Source: Planctomycetota bacterium
GTDB lineage: Bacteria; Planctomycetota; JAJSAM01; JAJVHW01
Assembly: GCA_965248445.1 (NCBI GenBank)
Contig: CBDFJG010000004.1
Location: 1,856,001-1,920,000 of the forward strand
Direction: 5' to 3'
Length of the DNA stretch: 64,000 nt
Positions 8,236 to 37,485 of the stretch are shown here, in pieces (within the stretch, counting starts at the first letter, position 1; every line of letters starts with the position of its first letter). The notes beneath the pieces are model-generated. The model was not told where the DNA came from. It ran no database searches and saw only the letters and a program-made list of their open reading frames with translations. Position numbers and translations under genes: made by a program.

Positions 8236-8405
8236 CGCGCGACCGGCAAGCGCCGCGGTGTAACCGATCTCGCGGTAACCACTTACGAGAGTGCGTCGCG
8301 GCGGCGGGCGACGAGATACCACGTAACGGGCGCACCTGGGAATCTGTGGTACTTTTCAAGTTACGCAGCTGCTAGGCAGACCACGCGTTGGGAGGTTACA
8401 TCGAA

Positions 8406-10862: not shown

Positions 10863-10873
10863 AGGAGGGACAT

Positions 10874-12169
10874 ATGTGCAACCAACACAAGGGGCACGGA
10901 CACCTTCCTAAGGGCGTCACGCGCCGAGACATTCTCAGAGCCGGTACGGCAGCCGCGGGCATCGTTGCCCTCGGACCGCTCGCCGGCGGCATCAAGGTCG
11001 CGCACGGTGCTCCGCTGAACATCAAGCGGATGATCGTCGTGAACTTCTTCGGTGGGCAGGACACGCTCAACTTCGTGATCCCCCACCTGCTGCCTCGCTA
11101 CAACAATCGACGGCCGACGATCGCCATCAACAACGGTCTCAGCCTCGATAACGGCGGTGCGGCGACGAACATCGACTTCACCATCCACCCGGTGATGACG
11201 GACATCCGCAACATGTGGGACGACGGCGACATGGCCTTCGTCAACAAAGTCGGGTATCCGCAACAGAACCTCAGTCACTTCACCAGTCAGAACATCTTCA
11301 GCCGCGGCGTCCGCTCGGAATCGGACGGAGCCGTCCGGTCAGGCTGGATCGCGCGATGGGCGGACGAGAACGCGCCGACGGCTTTGTCGTCGGTCGGTAT
11401 CGGCGTCGGTCGGTTGCTGGACTTCGTGGGTGGGCAGACCAGCCCGTTCCTCGCGTCCTCCCTCAGCAACTTCGAGGTCCGAGGCCGCGGAGGCGGCAAC
11501 GGCCTGAACGACGACGACTTGCACCGCGTCAACACGGCCAAGTCGATGCTGGCACAGTTCGGCGGTACGGGCGTCTCGGCCGAAGCCAAGACTGCGGTCG
11601 ATCAGGCCTACCAGCTCGCGGATCAGGTCGCAGACTCGATCACGAACTACTCCGGAACCGGTGACTACGGCTCGTCGACCTTCGCCAATCGGATGAAGGA
11701 CATCTCCCGCATGGTCGAGGCGGGGTTCGAGACGCAGATCTACTACACCGGCTTCGGCGGACTCGACACGCACGGCGGACAACTCAACCGTCACTCCCCC
11801 ATCCTGGCGAACTTCAACAACGCGGTCCGGGGCTTCTCCCAGGACATGAAGTCGCTGGGCCAGTGGGACAACACGGTGATCGTCGGAATCACAGAGTTCG
11901 GCCGTCGCAACTTCGAGAACGGTTCGCAAGGCACCGACCACGGGCACGAATCGACGCAGATGATCATCGGCGGACCGGTACAGGGAGGCAACCGCGGCGG
12001 CGCTCTGGTCGACAACGACCTCGCCACCAACTGGCTGCAGAACTCCTCCGAGTCGTCCGATTTCCGCTCCGTCTACAAGGAGATCCTCACGGATCACCTC
12101 GGGTCGGGCGGCATGAACGTCGTCTTCCCGGAGGTCATTCCAGGAGACCAGGACCTCGGGCTCATCTAG
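10874..12169 (+). CDS. DUF1501-family Tat-exported protein
   Basis: Tat motif TRRDIL; GGQDTLN, SHF, GGLDTHGGQ, TEFGRR..ENGSQGTDHG; AGGAGG SD; usual partner of DUF1800. Confidence 0.88.
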   Translation: MCNQHKGHGHLPKGVTRRDILRAGTAAAGIVALGPLAGGIKVAHGAPLNIKRMIVVNFFGGQDTLNFVIPHLLPRYNNRRPTIAINNGLSLDNGGAATNIDFTIHPVMTDIRNMWDDGDMAFVNKVGYPQQNLSHFTSQNIFSRGVRSESDGAVRSGWIARWADENAPTALSSVGIGVGRLLDFVGGQTSPFLASSLSNFEVRGRGGGNGLNDDDLHRVNTAKSMLAQFGGTGVSAEAKTAVDQAYQLADQVADSITNYSGTGDYGSSTFANRMKDISRMVEAGFETQIYYTGFGGLDTHGGQLNRHSPILANFNNAVRGFSQDMKSLGQWDNTVIVGITEFGRRNFENGSQGTDHGHESTQMIIGGPVQGGNRGGALVDNDLATNWLQNSSESSDFRSVYKEILTDHLGSGGMNVVFPEVIPGDQDLGLI

Positions 12170-21900: not shown

Positions 21901-22830
21901 GCATCCTGACCGTCACCGCCACGCTCCGCCAGCGTGGCGAGAGCGTCTTCGATTACCTCGCAGACGTCAGCGCGGCACTCGCGCACAACCGCTCGCCGCC
22001 GGCTCTCGTCGCGCTCCCGATCACGCGCTGAGGCCGCGGATCGTCATACCCTGAACGGGTACGACTTCGGACACGACGCGGCACCAGTTCAGGAACACAA
22101 AAGTCCCCGACAGGAGGAGTACTTCACCATTCCCGGCGATGACCTCGGCCGACTGTATGTCCACGGCCGTTTGGTTCGAGTCGGCACTGGGACCGTGTGC
22201 GCGGAACGTGATGTCGCCGTCGACCGTCGTCACCCTGCTCAGCACGGCGCCGGGCACGAACTCCCCGTCCGACCGGGCGCCTGTGCCGATGTCCACGCGG
22301 TCCGCATCGATCGTGATGGGACTCGCGGCGCCCGTCGTGCGAATGAACGTCACGGGCACGCCGAAGCGGTGTTCCAGTCCGACGGACCCACCGGCTACCA
22401 AGACGATCGGCTGATTGTCGCCGGTCGTTTGAATGCCCCCGTCGATGTCGATGATACCCGTCGCGCAGAGCGTCACGGGCCCCGTGTACGTGACGACCGC
22501 GTCTTGGATCAGCAGTGACTCATACTCGTAGATCCCGCCCGGCAGCGTCATGTCGCTCGTAATCGCCACCAGCCCAAGCGCTCCCGTGCCGGTGTCCGGC
22601 TTCGTCGGCAGCGTCGCCGTGAGAGTTCCCTGCGGCGTCAGTGCCGGCGCGTTGGGCGGCACCGCCGCCGGCGCGCACGGGTCGATGGTGACCGTGCCCT
22701 GCGTCGCAGCAGTTCCCGCGGCAACGGTCGCCCCAGTCGTGTCGATCGTGGCGCTGCCGACCGCACCGTCGAGTCCGACGCAGACGATCACCAGTGTCAA
22801 CCCTGCGACCAGGATTCGCGTCACGCGCAT
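18911..22830 (-). pseudogene. large secreted beta-rich surface protein interrupted by IS66 and a 1-nt frameshift
   Basis: signal peptide MRVTRILVAGL; frame rejoins across the IS (VSEV|GDFV); extra base at 20454-20456; GGxIxL-type repeats; Lys-rich C-terminus. Confidence 0.7.
20531..22062 (+). mobile_element. IS66-family element type A copy 2; transposase 20598-22031
   Basis: TIR GTACCCGTTCAG; 8-bp TSD GACTTCGG; same protein as copy 1. Confidence 0.95.
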
Positions 22831-22917
22831 GCTCCCCCCCTCACTCGGTGCGATGTCACACCAACCCGCGCCCATTCTAGGCGTTCCGGCGCCCTGGGCG
22901 CATGCGCGCCGCGCCGA

Positions 22918-25900
22918 CTAACCTCGCACGACCGTCGTGGCCGTACCCGTTCCGGCGTCGCCGATCTCTGCCCTCCAGGCGTCCATGATCTGCCGGTTCA
23001 CATCGAGCTCCGTGAGCATCCGTTCGCGGCTCTCGCCGGGCGCGCGTGCTACGGACTCATCGAGCAATCGCTTGGCCTCGACGAGGTGGCTCTTGTCGCG
23101 GGTCGCCAGCCACAGTTGGAGACGCGCCTCACACCGCTGGTCGGCGACCAGCACCTCCTCGTTCTTCTCGAATGCAGCCAGCGCGTCCGCGGCGTCCCCG
23201 CCGGGCAGGCGTGCGAGGTGACAGCGAGCGAGCGTCTCCTCGCCGCGCGCGCGGATCTCCACCGCGAGGTCGCGGGCGACGACGTACATCTTGTGTGCGC
23301 GCGCTTCGTCGCCGGCCGCAGAGTGCAGAGATGCGAGCGCGAGACGCGCCGAGAGGACGACCTGCTGGAGCCCGGACGCCTCGCTCAACTCCAGCCCGGC
23401 TTGCATCTCGCGCTTCGCGAGCGCAGCGTCGCCCAACGCCTGCGCAAGTGAGCCCCTGTTGATGCGTCCGTAGGCTTCACCCCGCCGGTCCCCGATCTCG
23501 TGAGCGAGCTGGATCTGCCTCTCGTACTGCTGCCGGGCCTCCTCGAGCCGGCCGCTGAAGAAGAAGACGTTCCCCAGGTTGCCGGTGCTGCTCCCCTCGC
23601 CCCGGCGGTCGCCCGTTTCGCGGCAGAGATCCCGTTGACACTCGAACTGGACCTGCGCTTCCGCCAACCGGCCCTCGAACCAGAACACGCTCCCGAGACT
23701 TCCCATCGCGCGCGCCTCACCCTGCCGATCTCCCAGTTCGCGGCAGAGGGCGAGGTGCCGCTCGTGCTGCTCACGGGCGGCGTCCAAGAGACCCATCGCC
23801 GCCAAGACGTTCCCGAGATTGCCGATGGCGATCACTTCGCTCACCCGGTACCCGATCTCGAGTGCAATCGCGAGCTGGTGCTCGTAGAGCGCCTTCGCCT
23901 CCGCCAACTGCCCCTCGGCCTTGACCACGAGACCGAGGTTCCCCGTCGCGACCGATTCGCCCTGCCGGTCGTCGATGTCGCGGCAGATCTCGAGTCGCCG
24001 CTCGATGTGCTCGCGCGCCTCGGTGAGCCGCCCCGTACCCCAACAAACGACGCCCAGCTGGCCGATGGCGCCGGCCTCCGCCCTCGTGTCGCCCACCTCG
24101 CGAGCGATCTCGAGAGCACGGTGCGACGCCGCTTCCGCGGCGGCGTGATTGGCGGTGCGCCAGTACCGGCGGCTGAGTGCGAGCGCCGCCTCGATCTGGA
24201 TCGCGCGGTCGCCCGCCTCCCGGGCGACCCGTTCCGCTTCCTGTACGGCTTCCTCCTGTCGGGTGCGGCGTCCCATCGCATCCAGTGCGCCCGCCAGTTG
24301 AAGGAGCACGCGCGCCCGATCCGTTCCCGCGAGCAGGCCCGGCTCCGACAGAACGCGCTCCGCCAGCGCGACCACCTGGGATTGGAGGTAGCTCTGCTCG
24401 AGGTGTGCCATCGCCGGAGCCACGTAACGCTTCGCCCGTTCGCCTCGCCCGCCCTTCAGAAAGTGCTCGCACAGGTCCCTGCAGAGCGCGCCGTCGAGCG
24501 ACGTGGGGTCGCTCGCAGCGGCGCTCGCATGCGTCTCGAGTGCTTCGGCCAGAGCGGAGTGGTAGTGCTCGCGAAGCTGCTCGAGAATCCCGGAGTAGAG
24601 GGCCTCTTGCACCTGGTGATGGTCGAACGTGACATGGCGCCCCGCCGCTCTCACGAGTCGATGCGACTTCTCGATCCGGCCGAGTCGCTTCAGTGCCGGG
24701 ACGACCGGGATTCCCGCCGCGGTCGCGACGAGCACCGGATCGAACTCGAAGCCGTAACACGCGGCGACCTCGAGCAGGTCCTTGTCTTCCTCCTCCAAGG
24801 CCGCGATGCGCGCGTTGATCATCTCCAGCACCGACGATGGGATCCGAATGTCCTCGATCGCTTGCGTCGAGTCCCACGTACCGTGCGCGCCTCCATCGAG
24901 AGACGATCCGTCGCGCAGACTGCGGATGATCTCGAACACGAAGAACGGATTGCCGTCGGACTTCTGCGCCACCTGTCCGGCGAGGCGCAGTGCCAACTGC
25001 TCCGATCCGAGCGAGTCCTGCAGCAGGCTGATCAGGTCCTTGGGTCCAAGGCGTGTGAGATCCAGCAGCGTCGTGTGCTCGCGGCGGCGGAGATGGGCGA
25101 CCCACTCGTCGGAGACCGCCGGGCGCGTGGACCCGACCAGAAGCACACGGTGACCCGCCATTGCCAGGCCGAGCGTTGTGAACATCGAGCGGGCGTGCTT
25201 CGGCGCGAACTGAAGGTCGTCGATCAGGACGATGGTTGTTCGCTCGGCACCGAGACTCCGCGTGGAATGGACGAAACACGTTCCGAGCGAGTCCTGCGTC
25301 AACTCGAACACGCCGTCGGGTGACGGTTCGCCGCGCAGAACCGCATCGAACGCGGGGGCGAGAAGCGGTGTCTGCATCAGATGCTCGGCAGACCCCGCGT
25401 CGCCGAAGTGCTCGCGATACGCGCGCGAGAAGCCGTCCGCCGCGGTCGCCGCGCCACCGGGAGGGTAGCTACCGAAGAGGAAATTGAAGTCTTCGCCGTC
25501 CTGCTCCAGGCGCGCGATCAGTTCATCGATGAGGCGCGTTTTCCCGATGCCGGCCTCGCCTCGGATCAGTACGACCTGGCCGTCACCGGCCTGTGCCGCG
25601 GCGTACAGCGAACGGAGCTTCGACAGTTCGTCCTCTCGTCCGTGGACGGCCGTCTCCCGCTGGATGCGCATGCGCCGGGGCGGCTGGCTGGAACTCGCGC
25701 GCAGCTCACGCATCCGTTCGTGCCACCACGCGGAGTCCTCGCCCTCTGCGAGCACCGCGTGAAGTTCCTCGGCTGTTGCGAAGCGCTCGTCGCGAGTCTT
25801 CGCGAGCAGCGTGTGGACGACCTCCTCGAAGAACGGACTCAGTTGCTGGTGAACGTCGCCGAGTCGCCGGGGCTCCTCGTCGCAGACCCGCTTCATCACG

Positions 25901-26565
25901 GCGCGGAAGTCACCGCCGCGGTAAGGATGGTGACCGCACGCGAGTTCATAGAGCAAGACGCCGAGCGCGTGCAGGTCGGTGCGCCCGTCCACCTCACTCG
26001 AGGTGAACTGCTCCGGCGCCGCATAGGCCGCGGAGCCGATGAACGCGCCGCTCTGCGAGAGGCGGATCGCCTCGTCCGCCAGACGCGCAACTCCCAGGTC
26101 CATCACCTTCACCACGTGCTCTGCTGTGATGAGCACGTTCTCGGGCTTGAGGTCCCGGTGCACGACGCCGACCGCATGGATTGCGGCGAGACCCTTGCAG
26201 ACTTCGCGTCCGATGTGCCGGCAGAGTTCCTCGGGCACTCTGTCAAGGTCGCGTTGCAGGCCGGCGAGGGTCTGACCCTCGACGTACTCCATGACGAGAA
26301 AGTGCGAGCCGGCGATGGCGTCGCAATCCAGCGTGCGGACAACGTTGTCGTGCACGATCGCCTGTCCGACCTGCGCCTCGCGCATGAAACGCTTGAAGAA
26401 GCCCTCGGTCTCGAGGAGATGAGGGTGCACGATTTTCAGGGCGACGCGGGTACCCGCCTCGAGTCCTGGCGCGCGTCCCTGAACGACGGCGACGTAGACT
26501 TTCCCCATGCCGCCGGAACCGAGCCCCCGCTCGATCAGGTAAGGTCCGAGCCGTTCCCCTTTCAT
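22918..26565 (-). CDS. Ser/Thr kinase - STAND (AAA_16-like) NTPase - TPR protein, paralog 1
   Basis: GSGGMG, VALK, HRDLKPEN, DLG, YAAPEQ; GEAGIGKT; LIDDLQFA; SDGNPFFV; ~40-aa TPR repeats (GDRxGE...GNLG). Confidence 0.9.
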   Translation of the reverse strand: MKGERLGPYLIERGLGSGGMGKVYVAVVQGRAPGLEAGTRVALKIVHPHLLETEGFFKRFMREAQVGQAIVHDNVVRTLDCDAIAGSHFLVMEYVEGQTLAGLQRDLDRVPEELCRHIGREVCKGLAAIHAVGVVHRDLKPENVLITAEHVVKVMDLGVARLADEAIRLSQSGAFIGSAAYAAPEQFTSSEVDGRTDLHALGVLLYELACGHHPYRGGDFRAVMKRVCDEEPRRLGDVHQQLSPFFEEVVHTLLAKTRDERFATAEELHAVLAEGEDSAWWHERMRELRASSSQPPRRMRIQRETAVHGREDELSKLRSLYAAAQAGDGQVVLIRGEAGIGKTRLIDELIARLEQDGEDFNFLFGSYPPGGAATAADGFSRAYREHFGDAGSAEHLMQTPLLAPAFDAVLRGEPSPDGVFELTQDSLGTCFVHSTRSLGAERTTIVLIDDLQFAPKHARSMFTTLGLAMAGHRVLLVGSTRPAVSDEWVAHLRRREHTTLLDLTRLGPKDLISLLQDSLGSEQLALRLAGQVAQKSDGNPFFVFEIIRSLRDGSSLDGGAHGTWDSTQAIEDIRIPSSVLEMINARIAALEEEDKDLLEVAACYGFEFDPVLVATAAGIPVVPALKRLGRIEKSHRLVRAAGRHVTFDHHQVQEALYSGILEQLREHYHSALAEALETHASAAASDPTSLDGALCRDLCEHFLKGGRGERAKRYVAPAMAHLEQSYLQSQVVALAERVLSEPGLLAGTDRARVLLQLAGALDAMGRRTRQEEAVQEAERVAREAGDRAIQIEAALALSRRYWRTANHAAAEAASHRALEIAREVGDTRAEAGAIGQLGVVCWGTGRLTEAREHIERRLEICRDIDDRQGESVATGNLGLVVKAEGQLAEAKALYEHQLAIALEIGYRVSEVIAIGNLGNVLAAMGLLDAAREQHERHLALCRELGDRQGEARAMGSLGSVFWFEGRLAEAQVQFECQRDLCRETGDRRGEGSSTGNLGNVFFFSGRLEEARQQYERQIQLAHEIGDRRGEAYGRINRGSLAQALGDAALAKREMQAGLELSEASGLQQVVLSARLALASLHSAAGDEARAHKMYVVARDLAVEIRARGEETLARCHLARLPGGDAADALAAFEKNEEVLVADQRCEARLQLWLATRDKSHLVEAKRLLDESVARAPGESRERMLTELDVNRQIMDAWRAEIGDAGTGTATTVVRG

Positions 26566-26667
26566 CACGCGCAGGCTAGCTGCCCGACCGGCCGGGGCGC
26601 TTGCGCCGTCCCGCTACGGGCTCGGGACGCGGGTCGCCGGGTTCCGCGGATGCGCTACCTTGGCGGC

Positions 26668-29600
26668 ATGCTGGGGGAGCAGCTGGGACCGTACGTCGTC
26701 GAGGAGAAGCTCGGCGCGGGCGGCATGGGAACCGTGTACCGCGCGATGGGTCCGGCCGGGCCGGTTGCGCTGAAGGTCCTGCACCCGCACTTGCTCGAGA
26801 TTCCCGACGCCGCCGCGCGCATGCAGCGTGAGATCGAGATCGGCAAGACGGTGTGGCACGACAACGTCGTGCGGACCTACGAGGGCGGCGAGGCGAACGG
26901 CCACGCCTACATCGCGATGGAGCTGGTCGAGGGCCAGACGCTGTTGCAGTTACTGAGCGAGCTCGAGCGCGTCCCCGAGGAGCTGTGCCGTCACATCGGA
27001 CGCGAGGTCTGCAAGGGCCTAGACGCCATCCACGCGGTCGGCGCGATCCACCGGGACGTCAAGCCGGAGAACGTGCTGATCACAGCGGATCACGTGGTCA
27101 AGCTGATGGACCTCGGCGTCGCGCGGCAGATGGACGACAAGCTGCGGCTCAGCCAGAGCGGTGTGTTCGTCGGCTCTCTTCGCTACGCAAGTCCCGAGCA
27201 GCTGCAGAGCGGCGGGAAGGGCTTGGACGCGCGCAGCGATCTGCACGCGCTCGGCTTCGTGCTCTACGAGCTCTCGTGCGGAGCGCCGCCGTTCGACGGC
27301 GACGATGCGTCGGAGGTCATCCGAAGCGTCTGCAGCGACGAGCCTCGCCGGCTCGGGGACATCAATCCGCAACTCTCGCCGTTCTTCGAGGAGGTCGTGC
27401 ATACGCTTCTCCGCAAGAACCGCGACGAGCGCTTCCGAACGGCGGCCGAACTGCGGGTCGTGCTGGAGGATGGCGAGGACAGCGCGTGGTGGCACGAGCG
27501 CGCGCGCGCTTTGCGTGTCGAGACGCGCCGCCCGCTGCGCCGCATCCGTATCCCGCGCGAGACCGCCGTGTACGGTCGCGACGGCGAACTGGCCCTGTTG
27601 AGCGGTCTCTTCGACCAGGCGAACAAGGGTGACGGCCAGGTCGTTCTGCTCCAGGGCGAAGCGGGCGTCGGCAAGTCCCGCCTCGTGGACGAGCTGATCC
27701 GGCGGCTGCAGGAGGAGGGCGAGGAGATCGACTTCCTGTTCGGGAGCTACCCTCCCGGCGGCGCCGCCACGGTCGCGGGGGCGTTCAGCACGGCGTACCG
27801 CGAGCACTTCGGCGAGCAGGGCAGCGCAGCGTACTTGCCCGAGAACCAGGCACTCGTGCCCGCGTTCGATGCGCTGCTGCGCGGCGACCCGGCGCCGTCG
27901 GGGGCCGCACCCCTGAACAAGGGCTCCCTGCAGACGTGCTTCGTGCGCGCCACTCAGGGACTCGCAGCAGAACGCGTCGCGGTCATCTTGATCGACGACC
28001 TGCACTTCGCGCCCGGCGAGGGACGCGCGTTGTTCACGTCGCTCGCCCTCAGCGTGACGGGTCATCGAGTCCTGCTGATCGGCACGATGCGGGACGGCGT
28101 CGACGAGGACTGGGTTGCCGGTGTGACACGGCTCGACCACGCGGCGCACCTGCAGATAGCGCGTCTCGGGGCCAAGGACCTCGTGCAGATGCTCGAAGAC
28201 TCGCTGCGCTCACGCAAGCTGGCGGAGGAACTGGGCGTGCGCATCGCCGTGAAGTCCGACGGCAATCCATTCTTCGTGTTCGAGATCATCCGATGCCTAC
28301 GCGATGGCGGGTTGCTGCGGCAGTCCGCTGACGGCAGCTGGGTGACGACGCAGGTGATCGACGAGATCGAGATCCCATCGTCGGTGCTCGACCTGGTCAA
28401 TGCACGCGTCGCGTCTCTGTCCGAGGACGAGCGCAACCTGCTCGACGTGGCCGCTTGCTGGGGCTACTCGTTCGATCCCCTGATGGTCGGTGAGGTGCTC
28501 GGCATCGCACGCATTCCGCTGTTGCGCCAGCTCGCGCAGATCGAGCGCAAGCACCGGCTCGTGCGCGCGGCCGGCGTCAAGTACGTGTTCGATCACCACC
28601 AGGTCCAGGAGGCGCTGTACGGGTCGCTCTCCGAACTCCTGCGGCGCGAGTACCACGGCGCTCTGGCCGATGCCTGCGCCGCGCGCGCCACGGCGGGTGG
28701 CGTGGCTCTGTCGGAGGTCACCGGCCCCGCCGCCGTCGACATCGCCGATCACTACCTGCTGAGCGCGCGTCCACAGCAGGCGCTGGTCCATGTCGATGCC
28801 GCCGTCGCGCACCTGTGGGAGGGCTTCGTGCAGGAGCGCATCGTCGTCCTCCTGACACGCGTCCTCGACGCGCCAGGGCTTGTCACCGGCGTGCACCGAG
28901 CCCGCCTCCTGTCAACCGTGTCCAAGCCTCTCGCGTATCTGTCACGATGGGACGACCAGCTGCGCGTGCTCGACGAAGCGCTCGAACTCGCAACGACCGC
29001 GGACGACAAGCACTTGCAGTCGACGGTCCTTCTCCTACTCAGCGGCCGCCTGATCCGGGTCGGGCGATACGAAGACGCACACGACGTGCTGGTCCGCGTC
29101 CTGGCGCTCGCGCGGGAGACGGGCGACCGGACCGTCGAGGCCGCCTGCAACGGCAACCTGGCCACCGTGCTCGGCATCCGCGGCGAAGTGGACGAGGCGC
29201 TCGAGAAGTCGAAGCGCGTTCTCGCCATCGAGCACGAAGTGGGCAATCGCGTGGGCATCCGCATCTCGACCGTGAACCTGGGGAACACGTACTTCCGTGC
29301 GGGGCGCTTTGCGGAGGCGCGCGAGCAGTTCCTCCTGCACCAGGAGATCTGTCGTCGGGACGGTGACCGGGCGGCGGGCGCCCGTAGCCTCGGCAACCTG
29401 GGCGGCGTGTGCATCTCCGAAGGACGGATCGCAGAGGCGGAGACGCACTACCGGCGGCAGCTCGAGATCTCAGGGGAACTCGGTGACCGGTTGAGTCAGG
29501 CCTATGCGTACAGCAACCTCGGCCACGTGAGCTCGGAGCTCGGGCGCTACGACCAGGCGCGCGAGGAGTACAAGAGCAGCCTCGAGATCAGCCACGAGAT

Positions 29601-30141
29601 CGGCCACCGGCGTGGCGAGGCGACCGCGCACCACAATCTCGGGAGCGTTGCGACCTCGCTACGGGAATTGGAGACCGCGGGGGTGCACCTGCGCGCGTCT
29701 CTTGCGATCGCAGAGGACATCGGACTTCCGAACGTCGAGAGTCTCTGCCACCTGGATCTGAGCTACCTGTTCCAGCTGCGTGAAGACGAGCCAAACGAGC
29801 GACGGCACCTGGACGAGGCGGACCGGATCGCCACCGCGACCAACCAGCTGACCGAACTGGTCCTCGCCCGTTGTCGCCTGGCACTCCTGCCCGGCGGTGA
29901 CGTCGGTCGTGCGATCGCGGCGCTGGGCGAGTACGAAGCGCGCATCCGCGCTCCGTCGCGCTGCAAGGCGCGCTACCTGTTGTGGCGCGCGACTGACGAT
30001 CTCGTGCACCTGACCGAGGCTCGCCGACTCGTGGACGAAGCGGTGGCGGGGATGCCCGACGAGGCGCGTCAACAGACTCTCACGCACAACGAGACGTACT
30101 CCGCCGTCCTCTCCGCCTGCGAGGAAGAGGGCATCGCGTGA
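26668..30141 (+). CDS. Ser/Thr kinase - STAND NTPase - TPR protein, paralog 2
   Basis: HRDVKPEN, GEAGVGKS, LIDDLHFA, SDGNPFFV, TPRs; start ATG 26668 chosen by alignment with paralogs. Confidence 0.9.
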   Translation: MLGEQLGPYVVEEKLGAGGMGTVYRAMGPAGPVALKVLHPHLLEIPDAAARMQREIEIGKTVWHDNVVRTYEGGEANGHAYIAMELVEGQTLLQLLSELERVPEELCRHIGREVCKGLDAIHAVGAIHRDVKPENVLITADHVVKLMDLGVARQMDDKLRLSQSGVFVGSLRYASPEQLQSGGKGLDARSDLHALGFVLYELSCGAPPFDGDDASEVIRSVCSDEPRRLGDINPQLSPFFEEVVHTLLRKNRDERFRTAAELRVVLEDGEDSAWWHERARALRVETRRPLRRIRIPRETAVYGRDGELALLSGLFDQANKGDGQVVLLQGEAGVGKSRLVDELIRRLQEEGEEIDFLFGSYPPGGAATVAGAFSTAYREHFGEQGSAAYLPENQALVPAFDALLRGDPAPSGAAPLNKGSLQTCFVRATQGLAAERVAVILIDDLHFAPGEGRALFTSLALSVTGHRVLLIGTMRDGVDEDWVAGVTRLDHAAHLQIARLGAKDLVQMLEDSLRSRKLAEELGVRIAVKSDGNPFFVFEIIRCLRDGGLLRQSADGSWVTTQVIDEIEIPSSVLDLVNARVASLSEDERNLLDVAACWGYSFDPLMVGEVLGIARIPLLRQLAQIERKHRLVRAAGVKYVFDHHQVQEALYGSLSELLRREYHGALADACAARATAGGVALSEVTGPAAVDIADHYLLSARPQQALVHVDAAVAHLWEGFVQERIVVLLTRVLDAPGLVTGVHRARLLSTVSKPLAYLSRWDDQLRVLDEALELATTADDKHLQSTVLLLLSGRLIRVGRYEDAHDVLVRVLALARETGDRTVEAACNGNLATVLGIRGEVDEALEKSKRVLAIEHEVGNRVGIRISTVNLGNTYFRAGRFAEAREQFLLHQEICRRDGDRAAGARSLGNLGGVCISEGRIAEAETHYRRQLEISGELGDRLSQAYAYSNLGHVSSELGRYDQAREEYKSSLEISHEIGHRRGEATAHHNLGSVATSLRELETAGVHLRASLAIAEDIGLPNVESLCHLDLSYLFQLREDEPNERRHLDEADRIATATNQLTELVLARCRLALLPGGDVGRAIAALGEYEARIRAPSRCKARYLLWRATDDLVHLTEARRLVDEAVAGMPDEARQQTLTHNETYSAVLSACEEEGIA

Positions 30142-33100
30142 ACTCCGGCGAGGCGCTCGGCCCGTATCAGCTCTTCCAGGAGCTCGGTTCCGGCGGGATG
30201 GGGACCGTTTACCGCGCGGAGGGTCCCGAGGGCGTCGTGGCTGTCAAGATCGTGCGCCCGCAACTGTTCGAAACCGACGACGCGCTGGAGCGCTTTCACC
30301 GCGAGGTTGCGATCGGTCGCACAGTCGACCACCCGAACGTGGTGCGGACCTACGGCGGCGGGGAAGCGGATGGCCGCCACTACCTCGCGATGGAGCTCGT
30401 CGAGGGGCAGACGCTCGACGCTCTGCTCAAGGAACTCGAACGCGTCCCCGAAGAACTCTGCCGTCACATCGCGCACGAGGTGACGCAAGGCCTTGCTGCG
30501 ATTCACGCAGCCGGTGCGATCCACCGCGACATCAAGCCCGAGAACGTCCTCATCACGCCCGGCCACATCGTCAAGATCATGGATCTGGGCGTCGCGCGTT
30601 CGATGAACGACGCCATGGCGCTCTCGCGCACAGGGATGTTCGTGGGATCGCTCTGCTACTCGAGTCCCGAACAGTTGAAAGGCGGAGGCAAGGCAATCGA
30701 CGGGCGCGTGGATCTGCACGCGCTCGGTCTGGTGCTCTACGAGCTCTCGACCGGCGTCAATCCCTACGTCGCGGACGAATTCGGGCAGGTCGTGCGCAAG
30801 GTGTTGCACGACGAGCCGCGCCGCCTCGGCGACGTCAATCCGCAGGTCTCCCCGTTCTTCGAGGAGGTGGTGCACAACCTCCTCGCCAAGGACCGCGACG
30901 AGCGTTTCGCGAGCGCCGGAGATCTGCTCCTCGCCCTCGAGGAGGGCGAGGACTCCGCATGGTGGCACGCGCGGGCGGTCGCACTCCGCATCGCCACCAA
31001 GCGCCCGCTCCGCCGCGTCCGCATCCCGCGGGAGACGGCGGTCTTCGGCCGCGACGCGGAGCTCGCGCAACTCCGCGCGCTCTACGAGATAGCACGCGCG
31101 GGCGAGGGCCAGGTCGTGCTCGTCGAAGGCGAGGCGGGCATCGGTAAGTCCCGCATCGTGGACGAGTTCGTGGCGGGACTCCACCGCGACGACGAGGAGT
31201 TCCAGTTCCTGTTCGGTTCCTATCCGCCCGGCGCAGCGGGTACGGCCGTCGGTGCGTTCTCGACTGCTTACCGCGAACACTACGGCGACGAGCACCTCGA
31301 AGACGCGCTGGCCGCGCACCTTTCGGCCACACCGCGGCTGGTGCCGTCGTTTGCCGCGGTCCTGCGCGGCGACTCGCCGCCCGAGGGCGCCCAGCCACTC
31401 ACGCCCGAGTCGCTGCCCGCAGTCTTCGTGCACGCAACCAGGGCTCTCTCAAAGGAGCGCACGACGATCGTGCTGATCGACGACTTGCACTTCGCGCCGG
31501 AGGAGGGCCGCGCGCTATTCTTGGCCTTGGCGCTCGCCGCGCCGACGCAGCGCACGCTGCTCATCGGCACCGCGCGACGCGGGCTCTCCGAGAACTGGGT
31601 GGGCGGTCTCCTGCGCCATGGTTACACGTCGCGTATGGAACTTGGCCGCCTCGGTGCGAAGGATCTGGCGCGTCTGCTCAAGGACTCACTGCGGTCCGAG
31701 CGGCTCGCGGGCAAGCTCGCCCTTCTGGTCGCGGAGAAGTCGGACGGCAATCCGTTCTTCGTGTTCGAGATCATCCGTGGCCTTCGCGAGGGGCAGTTCC
31801 TCGCGCAGAGCGTGGACGGATCGTGGATCGCGACGCAGGACATCGAGCGCATCGACATCCCGTCTTCAGTGCTCGGACTCGTGCAGGCGCGTGTGGCGAA
31901 TCTCGACGAGGGGGAGCGTGACCTGCTCGACGTTGCGGCGTGCTGCGGGTTCGACTTCGACCCGACTCTCGTAGGCGAGGTGGTGGGACTCGCTCGCATC
32001 CCGTTGCTCAAGCGGCTGGGGCAGATCGAGCGCAAGCACCGTCTCGTGCGCGCGGCGGGGCGCCGCTTCGTGTTCGATCACCACCAGGTGCAGGAGGCCC
32101 TGTACGGCAGTCTCTCGGAACTGCTTCGCGAGGAGTACCACGCAGCGCTCGGCGACGTGGTCGAGGCGCGCGCGTTGAGGGGCGGGGCGGATCCGGCCGA
32201 CGTCCCCGGCGATGTCGCGGCACGGCTCTGCCGCCACTTCTTCGACGGCGCCACACCCGAGCGCGCAGTCCGGTACGTATCCGCGGCGTACCGGCATCTC
32301 GAGGACGGCCACCTCGGCGACGCGGCGGTCGCACTCCTGGACCAGGCCCTCGCCGAGCCAGGGCTCTTCACCGGCGCGCCGCGCTTGGATCTGCTGCTGA
32401 ACAGAGTCGAGCGTCTCGACGTGCTGGGCCGGCCGGCCGAGGAGCTGGCGACGATCGAGGAAGCGCTCGCGCTGGCGGAGGAACTCGGCGAGCCAGCGCG
32501 CATCGGGCACGCCCAGCGAATGCTCGGCTGGCACCTGGCTCGCGCTGGGCGCATGGAGGAAGCCCTGGCGTTGTTCGCGGCAGCGGAGGAAGCCGCGCGC
32601 AAGTCAGGGGACCGTGCGCTCGAGGCGCGGGTGCTCACCAACCAGGGCACGGCGCTCTACGGACTCGGCCGCCTGGACGAGGCGCGCGAACACCAGGAGC
32701 GGAGTCGCAGCCTGGCGGATCAGCTGGGCGACCTGCGCGCCGAGTCGCGCGCCGTGGTTGGCCTGGCGGTCGTGAGTTTTGCCGAAGGGCGCATGGACGA
32801 TGCGCGGAAGTACGACGAGCGCTACCTCGAGATGGCACGCGAAACCGGCGACTTGAACATCGAGTGTCTCGCCCACGCGAACTTGGGAAGCCTTGCGTAC
32901 ACCGAAGGACGCTTGGGTGACTGTCGCGTGCACCTCGAGCGCGCGCTCTCGCTCGCGCGCGAGCTTGGCTTGCGCCGAAAGGAGACGCGCGGCGTGGGCG
33001 ACATGGGGACGCTGTTCGCTGCGCTGGGCGACTACGCCCGCGCTGCCGAACACATGGAGGAGTGCCTCGCGCTCGCTCGCGAGGTCGGTTCGACGCATCA

Positions 33101-33755
33101 GCAGGGACGGTCGCTGCGCGAGCTGGGCACCCTGAAGTCGCTTCTCGGGGACCCCGCGACGGGGCGCGAGCACCTGCTCGCCGCGCTCGATCTCCATCGC
33201 GCGACGGGAGCGCGGCGCGAGGTGGGCAGCGTGCTGCGGTCCCTTGCTGATGTTACGGGTCGACTCGGCGATCAGGAGGGTGCGGATGCGCACTTCGTAG
33301 ACGCGATCCGCATCTGCCGCGAGGAGAAGGACGTCGTCGGCGCCGCGAAGGCACTCATAGACCGCGGGCTGCTCCTCGCGGCCCTCGACCGCGCCCAGCA
33401 CGCCCGCGACGCGCTGACGGAGGCGAGTGCCATGGCGCTCGAGTACGGAGACACGGAGATCTCGCTCCTCGCCGCGGCGCGCATCGCCGCGCTCCCCGAC
33501 AGCACCGAGCACGAAGTGGCCGCAGCCCGTGCTGCTCTCGCGGTCGCAGGCGCCGACGTACCTGCACCGACCCTCCTCCAGGCGCACTTCTTCCTCTGGA
33601 TGGCAACTGGCGAACGGGACTCGCTCGAGCAGTCGTTCCGTCTCATGACGACGATCTGCGACCTGGCTCCCGAAGACCGCCGCGCGGCGATGGTCGCGAA
33701 CGACCGGGTCTGGCGCAGCATCGCCGAAGAGGCAGCCGCGCACGGCCTCGTGTGA
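30138..33755 (+). CDS. Ser/Thr kinase - STAND NTPase - TPR protein, paralog 3
   Basis: HRDIKPEN, GEAGIGKS, LIDDLHFA, TPRs; GTGA overlap with paralog 2. Confidence 0.9.
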   Translation: MNSGEALGPYQLFQELGSGGMGTVYRAEGPEGVVAVKIVRPQLFETDDALERFHREVAIGRTVDHPNVVRTYGGGEADGRHYLAMELVEGQTLDALLKELERVPEELCRHIAHEVTQGLAAIHAAGAIHRDIKPENVLITPGHIVKIMDLGVARSMNDAMALSRTGMFVGSLCYSSPEQLKGGGKAIDGRVDLHALGLVLYELSTGVNPYVADEFGQVVRKVLHDEPRRLGDVNPQVSPFFEEVVHNLLAKDRDERFASAGDLLLALEEGEDSAWWHARAVALRIATKRPLRRVRIPRETAVFGRDAELAQLRALYEIARAGEGQVVLVEGEAGIGKSRIVDEFVAGLHRDDEEFQFLFGSYPPGAAGTAVGAFSTAYREHYGDEHLEDALAAHLSATPRLVPSFAAVLRGDSPPEGAQPLTPESLPAVFVHATRALSKERTTIVLIDDLHFAPEEGRALFLALALAAPTQRTLLIGTARRGLSENWVGGLLRHGYTSRMELGRLGAKDLARLLKDSLRSERLAGKLALLVAEKSDGNPFFVFEIIRGLREGQFLAQSVDGSWIATQDIERIDIPSSVLGLVQARVANLDEGERDLLDVAACCGFDFDPTLVGEVVGLARIPLLKRLGQIERKHRLVRAAGRRFVFDHHQVQEALYGSLSELLREEYHAALGDVVEARALRGGADPADVPGDVAARLCRHFFDGATPERAVRYVSAAYRHLEDGHLGDAAVALLDQALAEPGLFTGAPRLDLLLNRVERLDVLGRPAEELATIEEALALAEELGEPARIGHAQRMLGWHLARAGRMEEALALFAAAEEAARKSGDRALEARVLTNQGTALYGLGRLDEAREHQERSRSLADQLGDLRAESRAVVGLAVVSFAEGRMDDARKYDERYLEMARETGDLNIECLAHANLGSLAYTEGRLGDCRVHLERALSLARELGLRRKETRGVGDMGTLFAALGDYARAAEHMEECLALAREVGSTHQQGRSLRELGTLKSLLGDPATGREHLLAALDLHRATGARREVGSVLRSLADVTGRLGDQEGADAHFVDAIRICREEKDVVGAAKALIDRGLLLAALDRAQHARDALTEASAMALEYGDTEISLLAAARIAALPDSTEHEVAAARAALAVAGADVPAPTLLQAHFFLWMATGERDSLEQSFRLMTTICDLAPEDRRAAMVANDRVWRSIAEEAAAHGLV

Positions 33756-33873
33756 CTGCCGCCTCACGCCGGCCGGCACGTCCGCAGCCGGGGCGGGGGA
33801 GCGCCGCCCGCCCACGTCGGTGAGCAGATGCCGCAGGCGACCTGGTCCAGTCGGGTCGGTACCGTGCGACGTG

Positions 33874-36800
33874 ATGGAAGTCGGCGAGACGCTCGGTCCG
33901 TACCAGCTCTTCGCGGAACTCGGTTCCGGCGGGATGGGGACCGTCTACCGCGCGGAGGGTCCCGAAGGCGTCGTGGCGCTCAAGATCGTGCGCCCGCACC
34001 TGCTCGAGGCCGACGACGCGCTACAGCGATTTCATCGCGAGGTCGAGATCGGCCGCACAGTCGATCACGCGAACGTCGTGCGGACGTACGGCGGCGGCGA
34101 GGCCGACGGCCAGCACTACCTCTCGATGGAGTTCGTGGAGGGACAGACTCTCGACGCGCTGCTCAAGGAGCTCGAACGCGTCCCCGAGGAACTCTGCCGT
34201 CACATCGCGCACGAGGTGACGCAGGGCCTTGCTGCGATCCACGCGGCCGGTGCGATTCACCGCGACATCAAACCCGAGAACGTGCTCATCACGCCCGACC
34301 ACGTCGTCAAGATCATGGATCTGGGCGTCGCGCGTTCGATGGACGATGCCGTCGCGCTCTCGCGCACCGGAATGTTCGTGGGATCGCTCTGCTACGCGAG
34401 CCCCGAGCAGTTCAAGGGCGGAGGCAAGGGACTCGACGGGCGGGCGGACCTGCACGCTCTCGGCCTGGTGCTCTACGAGCTCTCGACAGGTGTCAATCCC
34501 TACGTCGCAGACGAATTCGCGCAGGTCGTGCGCAAGGTCCTGCACGACGAGCCGCGACGACTGGGCGAGCTCAACCCGCAGGTTTCGCCGTTCTTCGAGG
34601 AGGTGGTGCACAACCTGCTGGCCAAGGGCCGCGACGAGCGTTTCCCGAACGCGGACGACCTGCTGGTGGCGCTCGAGGAGGGCGAGGACTCCGCATGGTG
34701 GCACGCGCGGGCGGCGGCACTCCGCGTCGCGACGAAGCGTCCGTTGCGCCGCATCCGCATCCCGCGTGAGACGGGCGTGTTCGGTCGCGATGCCGAGCTT
34801 GCGCAGTTGCGCGCGCTCTACGACATGGCACGCACCGGCGATGGACAGGTCGTGCTCGTCGAGGGCGAGGCGGGCATCGGCAAGACCCGCATCGTCGACG
34901 AACTCGTAGCGGCACTTCACCGCGACGACGAGGACTTCCAGTTCCTGTTCGGGTCCTATCCGCCGGGCGCGGCGGGGGCGGCCGTCGGGGCGTTCTCGAC
35001 GGCGTACCGCGAGCACTACGGCGACGAGCACCTCGAAGACGCGCTGGCCGCGCACCTTGCGGCCACACCGCGGCTGGTGCCGTCATTTGCCGCGATCCTG
35101 CGCGGCGACTCGCCGCCCGAGGGCGCGCAGCCGCTGACACCCGAGTCGTTGCCGGCAGTGTTCGTGCATGCCACGAAGGCACTGTCCGCAGAGCGCACCA
35201 CGATCGTGCTCATCGATGATTTGCACTTCGCGCAGGACGAGGGCCGCGACCTCTTCGCGGCGCTCGCGCTCGCTGCGCCGATGCAACGGACGCTGCTCAT
35301 CGGCACGACGCGGCGGGGGATATCCGAGGAGTGGGTCGGCGGACTGCTGCGCCACGGCCACACGTCGCGCATGTCGCTCGGCCGCCTCGGTGCCAAGGAC
35401 CTCACCGCACTGCTCAAGGACTCGCTGCGTTCGGATCGCCTCGCGCGGAAGCTGGGGTTCCTGGTGGCGGAGAAGTCGGACGGCAACCCGTTCTTCGTGT
35501 TCGAGATCATCCGCGGACTGCGCGAGGGGCAGTTCCTCTCGCAGCGGGCCGACGGCTCCTGGATCGCCACGCAGGAGATCGAGCAGATCGACATCCCGTC
35601 GTCGGTACTCGGCCTCGTGCAGGCACGCGTCGCGAACCTGGACGAGGAGGAGCGAGACCTGCTCGACGTCGCAGCCTGCTGCGGCTTCGACTTCGACCCG
35701 CTGCTCGTGGGGGAGATCGTGGGGCTGGGCCGCATACCGTTGCTCAAGCGGCTGGCGCAGATCGAACGAAAGCACCGGCTCGTGCGCGCGGCAGGACGCC
35801 GGTTCGTGTTCGATCACCACCAGGTGCAGGAGGCCCTGTACGGCAGTCTGCCCGAGTTGCTGCGCGAGGAGTACCACGCCGCGCTCGGCGACGCACTCGA
35901 GACGCGAGCATTGCGCGGCGGGGTGAACCCCGCGGATGTCTCGGGAGAGGTCGCGGCCGGACTGTGCGGTCACTTCTTCGACGGCGGGGCTCCCGAACGC
36001 GCGGCGCCCTACGTCCCGGCGGCATACCAGCATCTCGAGGACGGGCACCTCGGCGACACGGCAGTCGCTCTTCTGGACCGAGCGCTCTCCGCGCCCGGGC
36101 TGTTCACCGGCGGCGGGCGCGTCGACATGCGGCTGCAGCAAGCTGAGCGTTTGAGCTTGTTGGGCCGGCTTGCTGCCTCGCGTGCAGCGATCGACGAGGC
36201 GCTCGGTCTCGCGGAGAGCCTCGACGATTTGGCGCGGGTCGGTCATGCGAAGTTGGCGCTGGGCAAGCTCGTCACCCAGTCGTTGCGTTGGTCGGAGGCG
36301 TTACAGAACTACGGCGAATCCGTGGATGCCGCAAAGCGCGCGGGGGACCGCTCGCTCGAGGCCCACGGACTCACCTGGGTCGCCAGCGCGCTGAGACACC
36401 TCGGTCGGCACGCCGAGTCGCGCGAGGGGCACGAACGGAGCCGCTCGCTGGCAAGAGAGATCGGCGACCTGCGTGTGGAGGCGCAGGCCACGCTGCACTT
36501 GGGTACGCTCGTCTACTCACTGGGGGACATGACGGAGGCGGGCCGGCTCTACGAACAGTATCTCGGGATGGCGCGGGGACTGGGCGACCGCGAGATGGAG
36601 TGCACGGCGAATCAGGCACTCGGCCACATTGCGTACACGCAGGGAGACATGGACCTTGCCCGGCGCCACATCGAGCGTGCGCTTGCGCTGAGCCGGGAAC
36701 TGGGCTTGCGCCGGCACGAGGCGTTCGCCGTCGGTGACCTGGGCACGCTCCACGCGGCTCAGGGCGACTACCCCCGCGCCGCGGAGCACGTGGAGGAGTG

Positions 36801-37485
36801 TCTCGCGATGGCGCGGGAGATCGGATTGACGGGCCAGGAAGCGCGCGCGCTCAAGGAACTGGGGATGCTGACGTCGTGGCTGGGCGACCCCGCGGCGGGA
36901 CGCGAGTACCTGCTCGCCGCGCTCGAGATTCACCGCGCGACGGGATCGGGGCGCCGCGAGGCGCAGGTGCTGTGTTCGTTGGCCGAGGTCGAGGACCGCC
37001 TCGGAGAAGTCGAGAGCGCCGAAGCGCACTATGACGAGGGACTCCGGCTCTCCCGCGATGCCGACGACTCCGTCGGCATCGCCATGGCGCTGGTGGAGCG
37101 CGGACTCATGTTCGCCGGCCTGGACCGCACGGCGGAGGCGCGTGAGTCACTGACTGAGGCACGCACGCTCGCGGGCACGTTCGGGGACGACGAGTTGACG
37201 CTCCTCGCGACGACGCGCATCGCCTCGCTCCCCGGTGCCGGCAAGGACGAGATCGCAGAGGCTTGCTCGGACCTCGGCTCGACCACGGTCGAAGACCCGT
37301 GCGTCGTTCAGGCGACGTACTTCGTGTGGCTCGCGACCGAGGATCAGGCCTACCTCGCCCAGGCGCTCGAGGTGCTCGGGCGGCTCACGTCCGGAGTTCC
37401 CGACGAGCAGCGCGCGGCGATGATCAAGAGCGATCCTCTGTGGGGGAAGATCGTGGACGCGGCGACCGCTCACGGTCTCCCGTGA
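33874..37485 (+). CDS. Ser/Thr kinase - STAND NTPase - TPR protein, paralog 4
   Basis: HRDIKPEN, GEAGIGKT, LIDDLHFA, TPRs; closest to paralog 3. Confidence 0.9.
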   Translation: MEVGETLGPYQLFAELGSGGMGTVYRAEGPEGVVALKIVRPHLLEADDALQRFHREVEIGRTVDHANVVRTYGGGEADGQHYLSMEFVEGQTLDALLKELERVPEELCRHIAHEVTQGLAAIHAAGAIHRDIKPENVLITPDHVVKIMDLGVARSMDDAVALSRTGMFVGSLCYASPEQFKGGGKGLDGRADLHALGLVLYELSTGVNPYVADEFAQVVRKVLHDEPRRLGELNPQVSPFFEEVVHNLLAKGRDERFPNADDLLVALEEGEDSAWWHARAAALRVATKRPLRRIRIPRETGVFGRDAELAQLRALYDMARTGDGQVVLVEGEAGIGKTRIVDELVAALHRDDEDFQFLFGSYPPGAAGAAVGAFSTAYREHYGDEHLEDALAAHLAATPRLVPSFAAILRGDSPPEGAQPLTPESLPAVFVHATKALSAERTTIVLIDDLHFAQDEGRDLFAALALAAPMQRTLLIGTTRRGISEEWVGGLLRHGHTSRMSLGRLGAKDLTALLKDSLRSDRLARKLGFLVAEKSDGNPFFVFEIIRGLREGQFLSQRADGSWIATQEIEQIDIPSSVLGLVQARVANLDEEERDLLDVAACCGFDFDPLLVGEIVGLGRIPLLKRLAQIERKHRLVRAAGRRFVFDHHQVQEALYGSLPELLREEYHAALGDALETRALRGGVNPADVSGEVAAGLCGHFFDGGAPERAAPYVPAAYQHLEDGHLGDTAVALLDRALSAPGLFTGGGRVDMRLQQAERLSLLGRLAASRAAIDEALGLAESLDDLARVGHAKLALGKLVTQSLRWSEALQNYGESVDAAKRAGDRSLEAHGLTWVASALRHLGRHAESREGHERSRSLAREIGDLRVEAQATLHLGTLVYSLGDMTEAGRLYEQYLGMARGLGDREMECTANQALGHIAYTQGDMDLARRHIERALALSRELGLRRHEAFAVGDLGTLHAAQGDYPRAAEHVEECLAMAREIGLTGQEARALKELGMLTSWLGDPAAGREYLLAALEIHRATGSGRREAQVLCSLAEVEDRLGEVESAEAHYDEGLRLSRDADDSVGIAMALVERGLMFAGLDRTAEARESLTEARTLAGTFGDDELTLLATTRIASLPGAGKDEIAEACSDLGSTTVEDPCVVQATYFVWLATEDQAYLAQALEVLGRLTSGVPDEQRAAMIKSDPLWGKIVDAATAHGLP

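Follow-up and report, generated by a model that had tools for sequence, protein, structure and literature searches.

Four kinase-STAND-TPR paralogs of a Planctomycetota genome belong to a lineage-expanded family of putative receptor kinases

Four Intact Genes at the Locus

The DNA analyzed here, referred to as the window, is a 64,000-nucleotide stretch of the genome of a Planctomycetota bacterium (assembly GCA_965248445.1, contig CBDFJG010000004.1, positions 1,856,001 to 1,920,000). It carries four paralogous genes, named K1 to K4, each encoding a Hanks-type kinase, a WW linker, a STAND NTPase composed of a nucleotide-binding domain (NBD), a helical domain (HD1) and a winged-helix domain (WHD), an arm, a 40-residue TPR array and a helical cap. 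Further family members of the source genome (G000) are designated by F numbers and fetched loci by L numbers. In window coordinates, the genes are as follows.

22918-26565, minus strand: K1, 1215 aa, with the architecture given above
26668-30141, plus strand: K2, 1157 aa, same architecture as K1, inside a longer open frame starting at 25381
30138-33755, plus strand: K3, 1205 aa, same architecture as K1, its start overlapping the K2 stop (GTGA)
33874-37485, plus strand: K4, 1203 aa, same architecture as K1, an old tandem duplicate of K3

The initial annotation, made from the sequence without database searches, had described four intact kinase-STAND-TPR paralogs, one divergent and three in tandem, and this was confirmed by the coordinates, the Pfam domains and the motifs it quoted. 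Pkinase, AAA_16 and TPR_12 exceed the Pfam cut-offs in each protein. The kinase motifs are complete in all four (Gly loop, beta3 Lys, alphaC Glu, HRDxKPEN, DLG for DFG, and [AS]PEQ), as are Walker A (GEAG[IV]GK[ST]) and Walker B (LIDDL) of the NTPase, the GxP motif of HD1 (SDGNPFF) and the histidine motif of the WHD (FDHH). The linker reads RRMRIQRET in K1 and RRVRIPRET in K3. Since the 19-residue hydropathy never rises above 1.58 (the highest values of the four proteins are 1.36-1.58), K1-K4 are predicted to be cytoplasmic and to lack a transmembrane segment. K1 and K2 lie head to head, separated by 99-102 bp, and K3 is probably translationally coupled to K2, because its start overlaps the K2 stop. 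Short-read contigs from the same sample cross the K1/K2, K2/K3 and K3/K4 junctions with 0 differences; therefore, the array is not a misassembly. Four sequencing runs of one sample, which may be the source, differed from the assembly by six scattered base differences and one 1-base deletion.

Fold Prediction

An AlphaFold2 model of K2, built from an 80-sequence alignment, had a mean pLDDT of 90.7 and a pTM of 0.66. Its kinase matched PknB (Z 31.1, rmsd 2.1, 258 aligned), and its NTPase and sensor together matched the STAND-TPR protein 6MFV (Foldseek E 1.2e-15, 772 columns). The repeats resembled the peptide-binding TPRs of LGN (Z 25.5, rmsd 7.2, 317 aligned), the peptide-bound phage Rap (Z 25.3, rmsd 4.0, 332 aligned) and domain III of MalT (Z 24.3, rmsd 4.0, 350 aligned), and the secondary structure of the model fits HD1 and WHD. 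No STAND NBD was among the best 50 VIA matches of the model, which were filled by kinases and TPRs. The K3 core, folded from a 4-sequence alignment, gave a weak model (pLDDT 61.8) whose Foldseek list was dominated by ORC/Cdc6-like AAA+ proteins, and a PDB sequence search with the core profile returned nothing better than E 0.06. A two-copy prediction of K2 residues 258-680 scored 0.00, which speaks neither for nor against oligomerization.

K1-K4 are STAND NTPases, as seen from the NBD, the GxP motif of HD1, the WHD histidine, the arm with its repeat sensor and the terminal effector. By motifs and fold they are Hanks-type Ser/Thr kinases of predicted activity. The STAND/NLR-like layout that had been proposed is supported by the domain order, the motifs and the matches of the K2 model.

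Family Members in the Source Genome and Beyond

A profile of the linker and NTPase retrieved 25 open reading frames from the source genome, all with a kinase-like N-terminus, so that the family makes up 25 of its 59 kinase-like frames. The four-gene array had been presented as a unit; this is not supported, the array being a composite sample of a 25-member genome-wide family. Tandem copies occur elsewhere in the same genome (F09-F11, F18-F19) and at nine of 76 loci from relatives. At these 76 loci, examined together with as much as 8 kb of flanking DNA, no four-gene array was found; the largest comprised three genes.

Two paralogs are broken. F07 (L084:5125-10261) is interrupted by an IS66 copy in the TPR region, and F20 (L093:3951-7816) is split into two frames of 874 and 402 aa, with a short direct duplication right before the stop. 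In addition, Arg replaces the beta3 Lys in F10 (G000:C3:1471286-1474777), and F13 (C4:261749-265486) has a degenerate kinase and Walker A in a full-length frame; from these residues, both are possible pseudo-enzymes.

All 16 same-order genomes contained between 2 and 28 matches (E ≤ 1e-40), and none of the 24 other-family genomes had any. Within one genus the number spans 3 to 28, the low genome being fragmented. Every class genome of at least 85% completeness had a match (15/15). Across the phylum, 19 of 300 genomes matched, eight from the organism's own class and 11 from two further families; outside its own class, this corresponds to 11 of 292 Planctomycetota genomes. The 76 relative loci were mostly titled Planctomycetota, with seven Eisenbacteria and one Gemmatimonadales.

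In the databases, 824 proteins among 8000 candidates scored reached E ≤ 1e-30, and the homologues formed 1,197 clusters at 50% identity. Nearly all of the 90% clusters listed were singletons. From 268 retrieved proteins, 222 had room for an N-terminal domain, and in all 222 this domain was a kinase; Walker A was retained in 220 of them, HRD in 208, GxP in 216 and FDH in 211. Together with the 25 genomic copies and the intact motifs of K1-K4, this supports the proposal of an expanded receptor family with a kinase output. The nearest ESM Atlas clusters are Pkinase plus AAA_16 proteins of several phyla (scores 0.98-0.99), and kinase-AAA_16-TPR clusters are present in Acidobacteriota, Myxococcota, Chloroflexota and Thermoplasmatota. 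Several homologues (L069, L070, L072, P0167, P0215, P0226, P0229, P0232, P0237 and P0244), three Eisenbacteria loci among them, have an additional kinase, or a segment resembling one, ahead of the core, and the 280-residue N-terminal domain of P0097 may be HEPN-like.

Divergence and Exchange among the Paralogs

Identity between K3 and K4 varies by domain: 88% in the kinase, 91% in the linker, 88% in the NBD, 89% in HD1-WHD, 75% in the arm, 53% in the TPRs and 36% in the cap. The other five pairs of K1-K4 share 55-70% over kinase, NBD and WHD, and 26-36% in the TPRs. The conserved core with diversified TPRs was thus borne out, and divergence is not uniform across the domains (core 88-89% against 53% in the TPRs of K3/K4). 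The description of K3 and K4 as near-identical holds for the protein core, but not for the DNA, where 26-48% of the four-fold sites differ. Therefore, the duplication is old and the core has been held by purifying selection. The dN/dS of the pair is about 0.15 in the kinase and about 0.13 in the core.

A quick core tree of 98 rows, in which the long-branch members F03, F13, F14, F17, F20 and F21 are unsurely placed, joined K3 and K4 as sisters (SH-aLRT 100), the sole sister pair among the four. K2 had as its sister a gene copy in a different genome (SH-aLRT 98), and K1 grouped with F07 and with copies in other genomes (96), apart from K2-K4. Fixed orthologous copies across the lineage were seen neither in this tree nor in the match numbers per same-order genome. 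The kinase, core and tail trees of 15 paralogs were discordant, F06 for example grouping with F10 by its kinase (94) and with F04 by its core (81), indicating domain exchange between paralogs.

Variation in the Repeat Sensor

Positions 2, 5, 9, 12 and 13 are the concave ligand-contact positions in solved TPRs (PMC1261162), and we refer to them, as assigned by alignment to the TPR consensus, as the groove. Among 104 of the 40-residue units, entropy was highest at positions -2, 2, 9, 12 and 13 (3.4-3.8 bits); exposed helix-B positions had 1.8-2.9 bits. The pattern recurred across 949 units of database homologues. Over four disjoint paralog pairs, groove positions differed in 87 of 120 comparisons and exposed helix-B positions in 109 of 216 (p = 8e-5). 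Among 19 hand-picked related pairs, the groove was less conserved than the outer face in 13 and about as or more conserved in 6, the latter being mostly deeper lineages and the syntenic L051/L054/L061 set. Therefore, both diversifying and stable regimes exist.

A pair of units 88-96% identical in DNA was found in 11 of 87 genes with at least two units, in three genomes. The homogenized genes comprise F19 in the source genome, L005, and nine in a single further assembly, where units are 91-95% identical between genes as well. In F19 (G000:C4:1191217-1194945, equal to L092:8721-12446, minus strand), five TPR units in the middle of the array each share 82-86% identity with a single consensus, and between two of these units identity reaches 96%. 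Its core groups with the divergent F01; judging by its repeats and core, F19 is a chimera with an apparently recently homogenized sensor. Units 70-74% identical to those of F19 lie outside the 25 family loci (G000:C2 near 644000), probably in another TPR gene.

Selection was assessed on 41 units, drawn from 11 genes of a single relative assembly and clustered by all sites. In the groove, pN was 0.218, compared with 0.067 elsewhere and an overall pS of 0.119 (p = 1.4e-6), and 0.2% of random five-position sets reached the groove value. The ratio of groove piN to all-site piS was 2.28 (1.94-2.64, bootstrap over genes). At positions 2, 9 and 12 of these near-identical units, piN was 0.58-0.61, against an overall synonymous diversity of 0.17. 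With a GY94-type codon model written in Python, the per-site omega was about 3, 4 and 6 at positions 2, 12 and 27, respectively, and about 1 at position 9. In this relative, a few positions of the unit are likely, though not proven, to be under positive selection. As regards the sensors of the array, which had been described as diversified, TPR divergence and the groove excess over four pairs agree with this, but K1-K4 carry no homogenized repeats.

The codons at position 2 are almost all NNC, which prompted us to consider a diversity-generating retroelement. This was rejected: no unit-length template was found near the single reverse transcriptase of G000, G006 or G004, and A-containing codons at repeat positions 0 and 33 showed no amino-acid change. 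The enzyme of G000 (L105:6623-7930) we take from its motifs to be group II intron-like, and those of G006 and G004 (L104:9492-10502 and L106:6649-7668) to be retron-like.

Genes beside the Family Members

Among 80 selected genes of the window and the other 17 genome regions, Pfam identified housekeeping genes, transposases, an antitoxin-PIN pair, an integrase and three extracytoplasmic function (ECF) sigma factors. When 351 neighbors from relatives were clustered with those of the source genome, the most widespread groups were two of ECF sigma factors, loose TPR fragments and generic ABC ATPases. The ECF groups comprise 5 loci in 5 genomes and 7 loci in 4 genomes, i.e., 12 of 111 family genes, and are the only informative recurrent neighbors. 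All seven members of the second group carry Q-x-T-A, and the two tested pass the TIGR02999 cut-off. A cognate Hanks kinase activates ECF43 sigma factors, which have a QTTA consensus (PMC13147305, PMC7826278). In the source genome, all four sigma factors of this type adjoin a kinase, two of these kinases being family members. The family members F03, F08 and F21 of this genome are paired with an ECF sigma factor. Most ECF-paired members have an N-terminal extension of 60-100 residues; K1-K4 have no such extension, and no ECF sigma factor lies beside them among the window neighbors.

F03 (L080:4985-9341) and F08 (L085:4882-9140), the two whose sigma factor is of TIGR02999 type, have HRE in place of the catalytic HRD, a replacement seen in only 1 of the 222 database homologues. 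With this residue change, their role may be that of ligand-gated binding partners rather than of kinases.

Regions Flanking the Array

The following features accompany the four genes.

26573-26578, minus strand: TANNNT hexamer 7 nt upstream of the K1 start codon, a candidate leaderless -10 element
26656-26661, plus strand: TANNNT hexamer 6 nt upstream of the K2 start codon, a candidate leaderless -10 element, back to back with the K1 hexamer
33860-33865, plus strand: TANNNT hexamer 8 nt before the K4 ATG, a candidate leaderless -10 element
20531-22062, plus strand: IS66-family element with an 8-bp target duplication, inside the gene downstream of K1 (flank, outside the family)
18911-22875, minus strand: predicted exported protein split by this IS66 (halves 22021-22875 and 18911-20437), with intact-looking paralogs elsewhere in the genome
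37593-38993, minus strand: second IS66-family transposase, directly downstream of K4 (flank)

From its hexamer, K4 probably has its own promoter. The hexamer precedes the start of 12 of the 25 paralogs at a spacing of 6-9, compared with 54 of 510 called genes of contig C1, although those of the paralogs are inherited by descent and hence not independent. Few genes of this contig have it at other spacings, and leaderless transcription looks common in the source organism on this count. A sigma-70 two-box scan gave 0 sites, and Tandem Repeats Finder reported only one 12-bp unit in the array.

The initial annotation had stressed that the frames are intact over 14.6 kb although neighboring genes are disrupted by insertion sequences (IS). 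They are intact and the left neighbor is split by IS66, but with 178 copies of four IS types in 5.4 Mb, the chance of 14.6 kb without an IS hit is about 0.6. Intactness was therefore rejected as evidence, since such an interval is expected more often than not. Family genes lie near an IS in 10 of 25 cases, against 25% of random intervals, a weak difference. The product of the IS66-split gene is low-complexity and Gly/Thr/Ala-rich, has at least four paralogs in the genome and matches no Pfam family above cut-off. The window is IS-dense between 4122 and 62965 (IS3-like three times, IS66 types several times, IS1380-like once), and a recent IS expansion in the genome is most likely. Positions 6619-12166 hold a GSDH plus Ig-domain protein followed by a DUF1800/DUF1501 pair, with slightly lower GC (63-64%).

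Discussion

The four-gene array is ordinary, and it is the family behind it that is worth testing. With about even confidence, we favor the reading that K1-K4 are part of a lineage-expanded repertoire of cytoplasmic, ligand-gated receptor kinases that track changing, probably foreign, ligands. Within it, we regard a switch-gated kinase mechanism as highly probable. By analogy with STAND biology, the rest state would be an ADP-bound monomer clamped by the arm and TPRs, and a protein or peptide in the groove would trigger ADP/ATP exchange and oligomerization; a clamped monomer that opens and oligomerizes on its ligand is based on MalT and PH0952 (PMC6468293). The oligomer would gather the kinase domains for trans-autophosphorylation and then phosphorylation of a target. 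Judging from the neighbors, the output would be regulatory rather than directly lethal, with about a tenth of the members presumably coupled to a kinase-activated ECF sigma factor. The selection pattern suggests that a fast-expanding subclade, including K1 and K2, tracks changing ligands, most likely non-self proteins of phage, other mobile elements, competitors or predators. Each copy would have its own specificity, and the cluster would be a by-product of duplication and recombination.

A more far-reaching version, which we put forward only tentatively and as a whole, is an NLR-like innate-immune repertoire with tens of receptors per cell. New specificities would arise by concerted evolution and exchange of 120-bp TPR units, with positive selection acting on a small number of contact residues, and the output would be a kinase cascade, in some cases onto an ECF sigma factor, and not suicide; K1-K4 would then be older, fixed members. 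The immune-like surveillance proposed in the initial annotation has the evolutionary pattern in relatives on its side, but no support from the gene neighborhood.

Several observations weigh against the reading of a repertoire that follows changing foreign ligands. Defense enrichment is absent: PADLOC at 1e-15 hit 3 of 125 adjacent genes in relatives and 6 of 119 control genes, the controls being nine arbitrarily chosen regions of the source genome and the comparison cruder than the DefenseFinder 5-kb test of PMC13581612. The groove positions were taken from the consensus alignment rather than from coordinates, and in TPR families generally the concave face is variable (PMC1261162). Internally conserved repeats are absent from K1-K4, whose most similar units reach 54-62% DNA identity. 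For K3/K4 alone, the groove excess (27/40 against 35/72) is not significant (p = 0.07), and their whole-TPR dN/dS is about 0.46, with synonymous sites near saturation. The groove-conserving pairs (6 of 19) have to be counted here as well, and two units with at least 80% amino-acid identity were seen in just 6 of 188 database homologues. The selection signal stems from one assembly, in which the pooled a-priori groove class had an omega of 1.16, not above 1 (p = 0.37), with 0.23 elsewhere. Synonymous diversity was high too at positions 9 and 12 (0.50 and 0.64), and recombination inflates tree-based site tests; therefore, positive selection is likely, but unproven.

Some of these points fit another explanation, namely that the family consists of ordinary cytoplasmic signaling kinases resembling MalT/PknK, whose ligands are proteins or metabolites of the cell itself. 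The growth of the family and the homogenization of repeats would be largely neutral in IS-rich genomes, and the groove would drift or specialize after duplication. We consider this possible but somewhat unlikely. The pooled groove omega of about 1 and the groove kept in some lineages are compatible with it, as are the presence of the family in every sufficiently complete class genome, unlike patchy defense genes, the neighbors (housekeeping genes, IS elements and ECF sigma factors), the kinase-AAA_16-TPR clusters in Acidobacteriota and the three other phyla, and the lineage-specific kinase-TPR expansions reported in Planctomycetota and myxobacteria (PMC11032199). It is harder to reconcile with a piN at positions 2, 9 and 12 far above the overall synonymous diversity, with the spread from 3 to 28 matches in one genus (the low genome being fragmented), and with listed 90% clusters that are nearly all singletons. 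If it were true, the family would be one more lineage-specific kinase expansion.

It is also conceivable, but rather improbable, that each protein detects a phage protein and that the kinase arrests or kills the cell by broad phosphorylation, as in Avs-like abortive infection. The effector-STAND-TPR layout is that of Avs, most defense STAND sensors are TPR-like (PMC13581612), a phage-protective kinase exists in staphylococci according to a reference title, and birth-and-death turnover with groove diversification would be in line with such a role. On the other hand, adjacent genes were hit by PADLOC no more often than controls, the best 25 PADLOC models for K1 and K3 span no more than the kinase or a generic part of the TPRs, every whole-N-terminus homologue has a kinase as its effector, compared with at least 20 effectors in Avs7, and the ECF partners point to transcription. 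That K1-K4 form one cooperative unit, as sensor/helper pairs or a hetero-oligomer kept by selection, is very improbable despite the head-to-head K1/K2, the K2/K3 overlap and the tandem copies elsewhere, given complete motifs in all four without sensor/helper asymmetry, a single sister pair, a candidate promoter each for K1, K2 and K4, and at most three genes at any of the 76 relative loci.

Should the innate-immune repertoire exist, it would be a bacterial immune pathway from receptor to kinase to transcription. Tested bacterial STAND receptors kill the infected cell, while the regulatory ones, of MalT type, occur as single copies and respond to molecules of the cell itself. A family with fungal-NLR-like groove diversification and pairing with a phosphorylation-activated sigma factor would bridge the two. 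In addition, the near-identical repeat set of one relative is a natural library for a TPR recognition code, with a constant scaffold and about six variable positions.

Relation to Known Systems

Kinase-fused STANDs of MalT type (Pkinase, AAA_16 and TPR), of which we take PknK to be one, share the domain order and NTPase class of K1-K4. The SWACOS clade is characterized by fusion to a Ser/Thr kinase or adenylyl cyclase, and a fusion of this type, with the kinase preceding the core, is present in all 222 whole-N-terminus homologues. The clade is named without definition in the available text of PMC8195603, PMC7159879 and PMC13236601, and Ser/Thr kinases are named among bacterial STANDs in PMC6468293. 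The TOMM kinase/cyclase model TIGR03903 matches K3 residues 287-882 with 228.9 bits, far below its cut-off of 705.75, and Pfam finds no cyclase domain in K1-K4. Compared with the kinase-fused STANDs in general, the family has its own WW/RIPRET linker and is centered on one class of Planctomycetota plus two further families. Kinase-TPR expansions of Planctomycetota have been described, the terms "AAA" and "ATPase" being absent from the available main text (PMC11032199). Literature searches, with subscription journals mostly outside their coverage, returned no published description of this family.

PH0952 and MalT (PDB 6MFV, 1HZ4) have the NBD-HD-WHD-arm-TPR arrangement, the GxP and the WHD histidine motif in common with K1-K4 at 13-15% identity. 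Their output is DNA binding, whereas K1-K4 have an N-terminal kinase instead and belong to a multi-copy, diversifying family.

With Avs and other bacterial NLR anti-phage receptors, the family shares the effector-STAND-TPR layout, but it has many copies per genome and no defense-island context; an enrichment of nearby defense genes, by which PMC13581612 recognizes defense STANDs, was not found around it. Avs7 has at least 20 effectors, and the tested Avs families kill the cell via their effector domains (PMC13581612). The family is the reverse of Avs7, with a fixed effector and a variable sensor. It may lie among the 589 STAND clades of PMC13581612, where a search of seven of the ten supplementary data files for "kinase" gave no hit.

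Seven family loci adjoin a Q-x-T-A sigma factor and thus resemble the ECF43/Hanks pairs EcfK-PknS of Xanthomonas and EcfP-PknT of Vibrio; K1-K4 have neither the extension nor an adjacent sigma factor. An N-terminal extension is common to PknS and most ECF-paired family kinases. However, PknS is a membrane receptor with periplasmic TPRs, while the sensor of the family is predicted to be cytoplasmic and gated by a STAND NTPase.

Fungal NLRs (HNWD and NB-ARC-TPR proteins, e.g., Pa_2_10340 and het-z) have near-identical units within and between genes and few hypervariable positions, as in some relatives studied here, and in Podospora the TPR sites under selection lie on the concave face (PMC4986451). 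They differ in having NB-ARC or NACHT and 42-residue units, compared with AAA_16, 40-residue units, a kinase effector and no demonstrated cell-death role in the family. Internally conserved repeats have already been noted generally in bacterial NLR-like proteins (PMC13449251, bioRxiv 2020.01.06.895854). At about 85% identity or more within a gene, such repeats occur in F19 (96%) and ten genes of two relatives, a minority of the family that includes none of K1-K4. Taken together, the architecture is known and widespread, the family works NLR-like in layout and, in some relatives, in its evolutionary regime, and it is this regime that is new.

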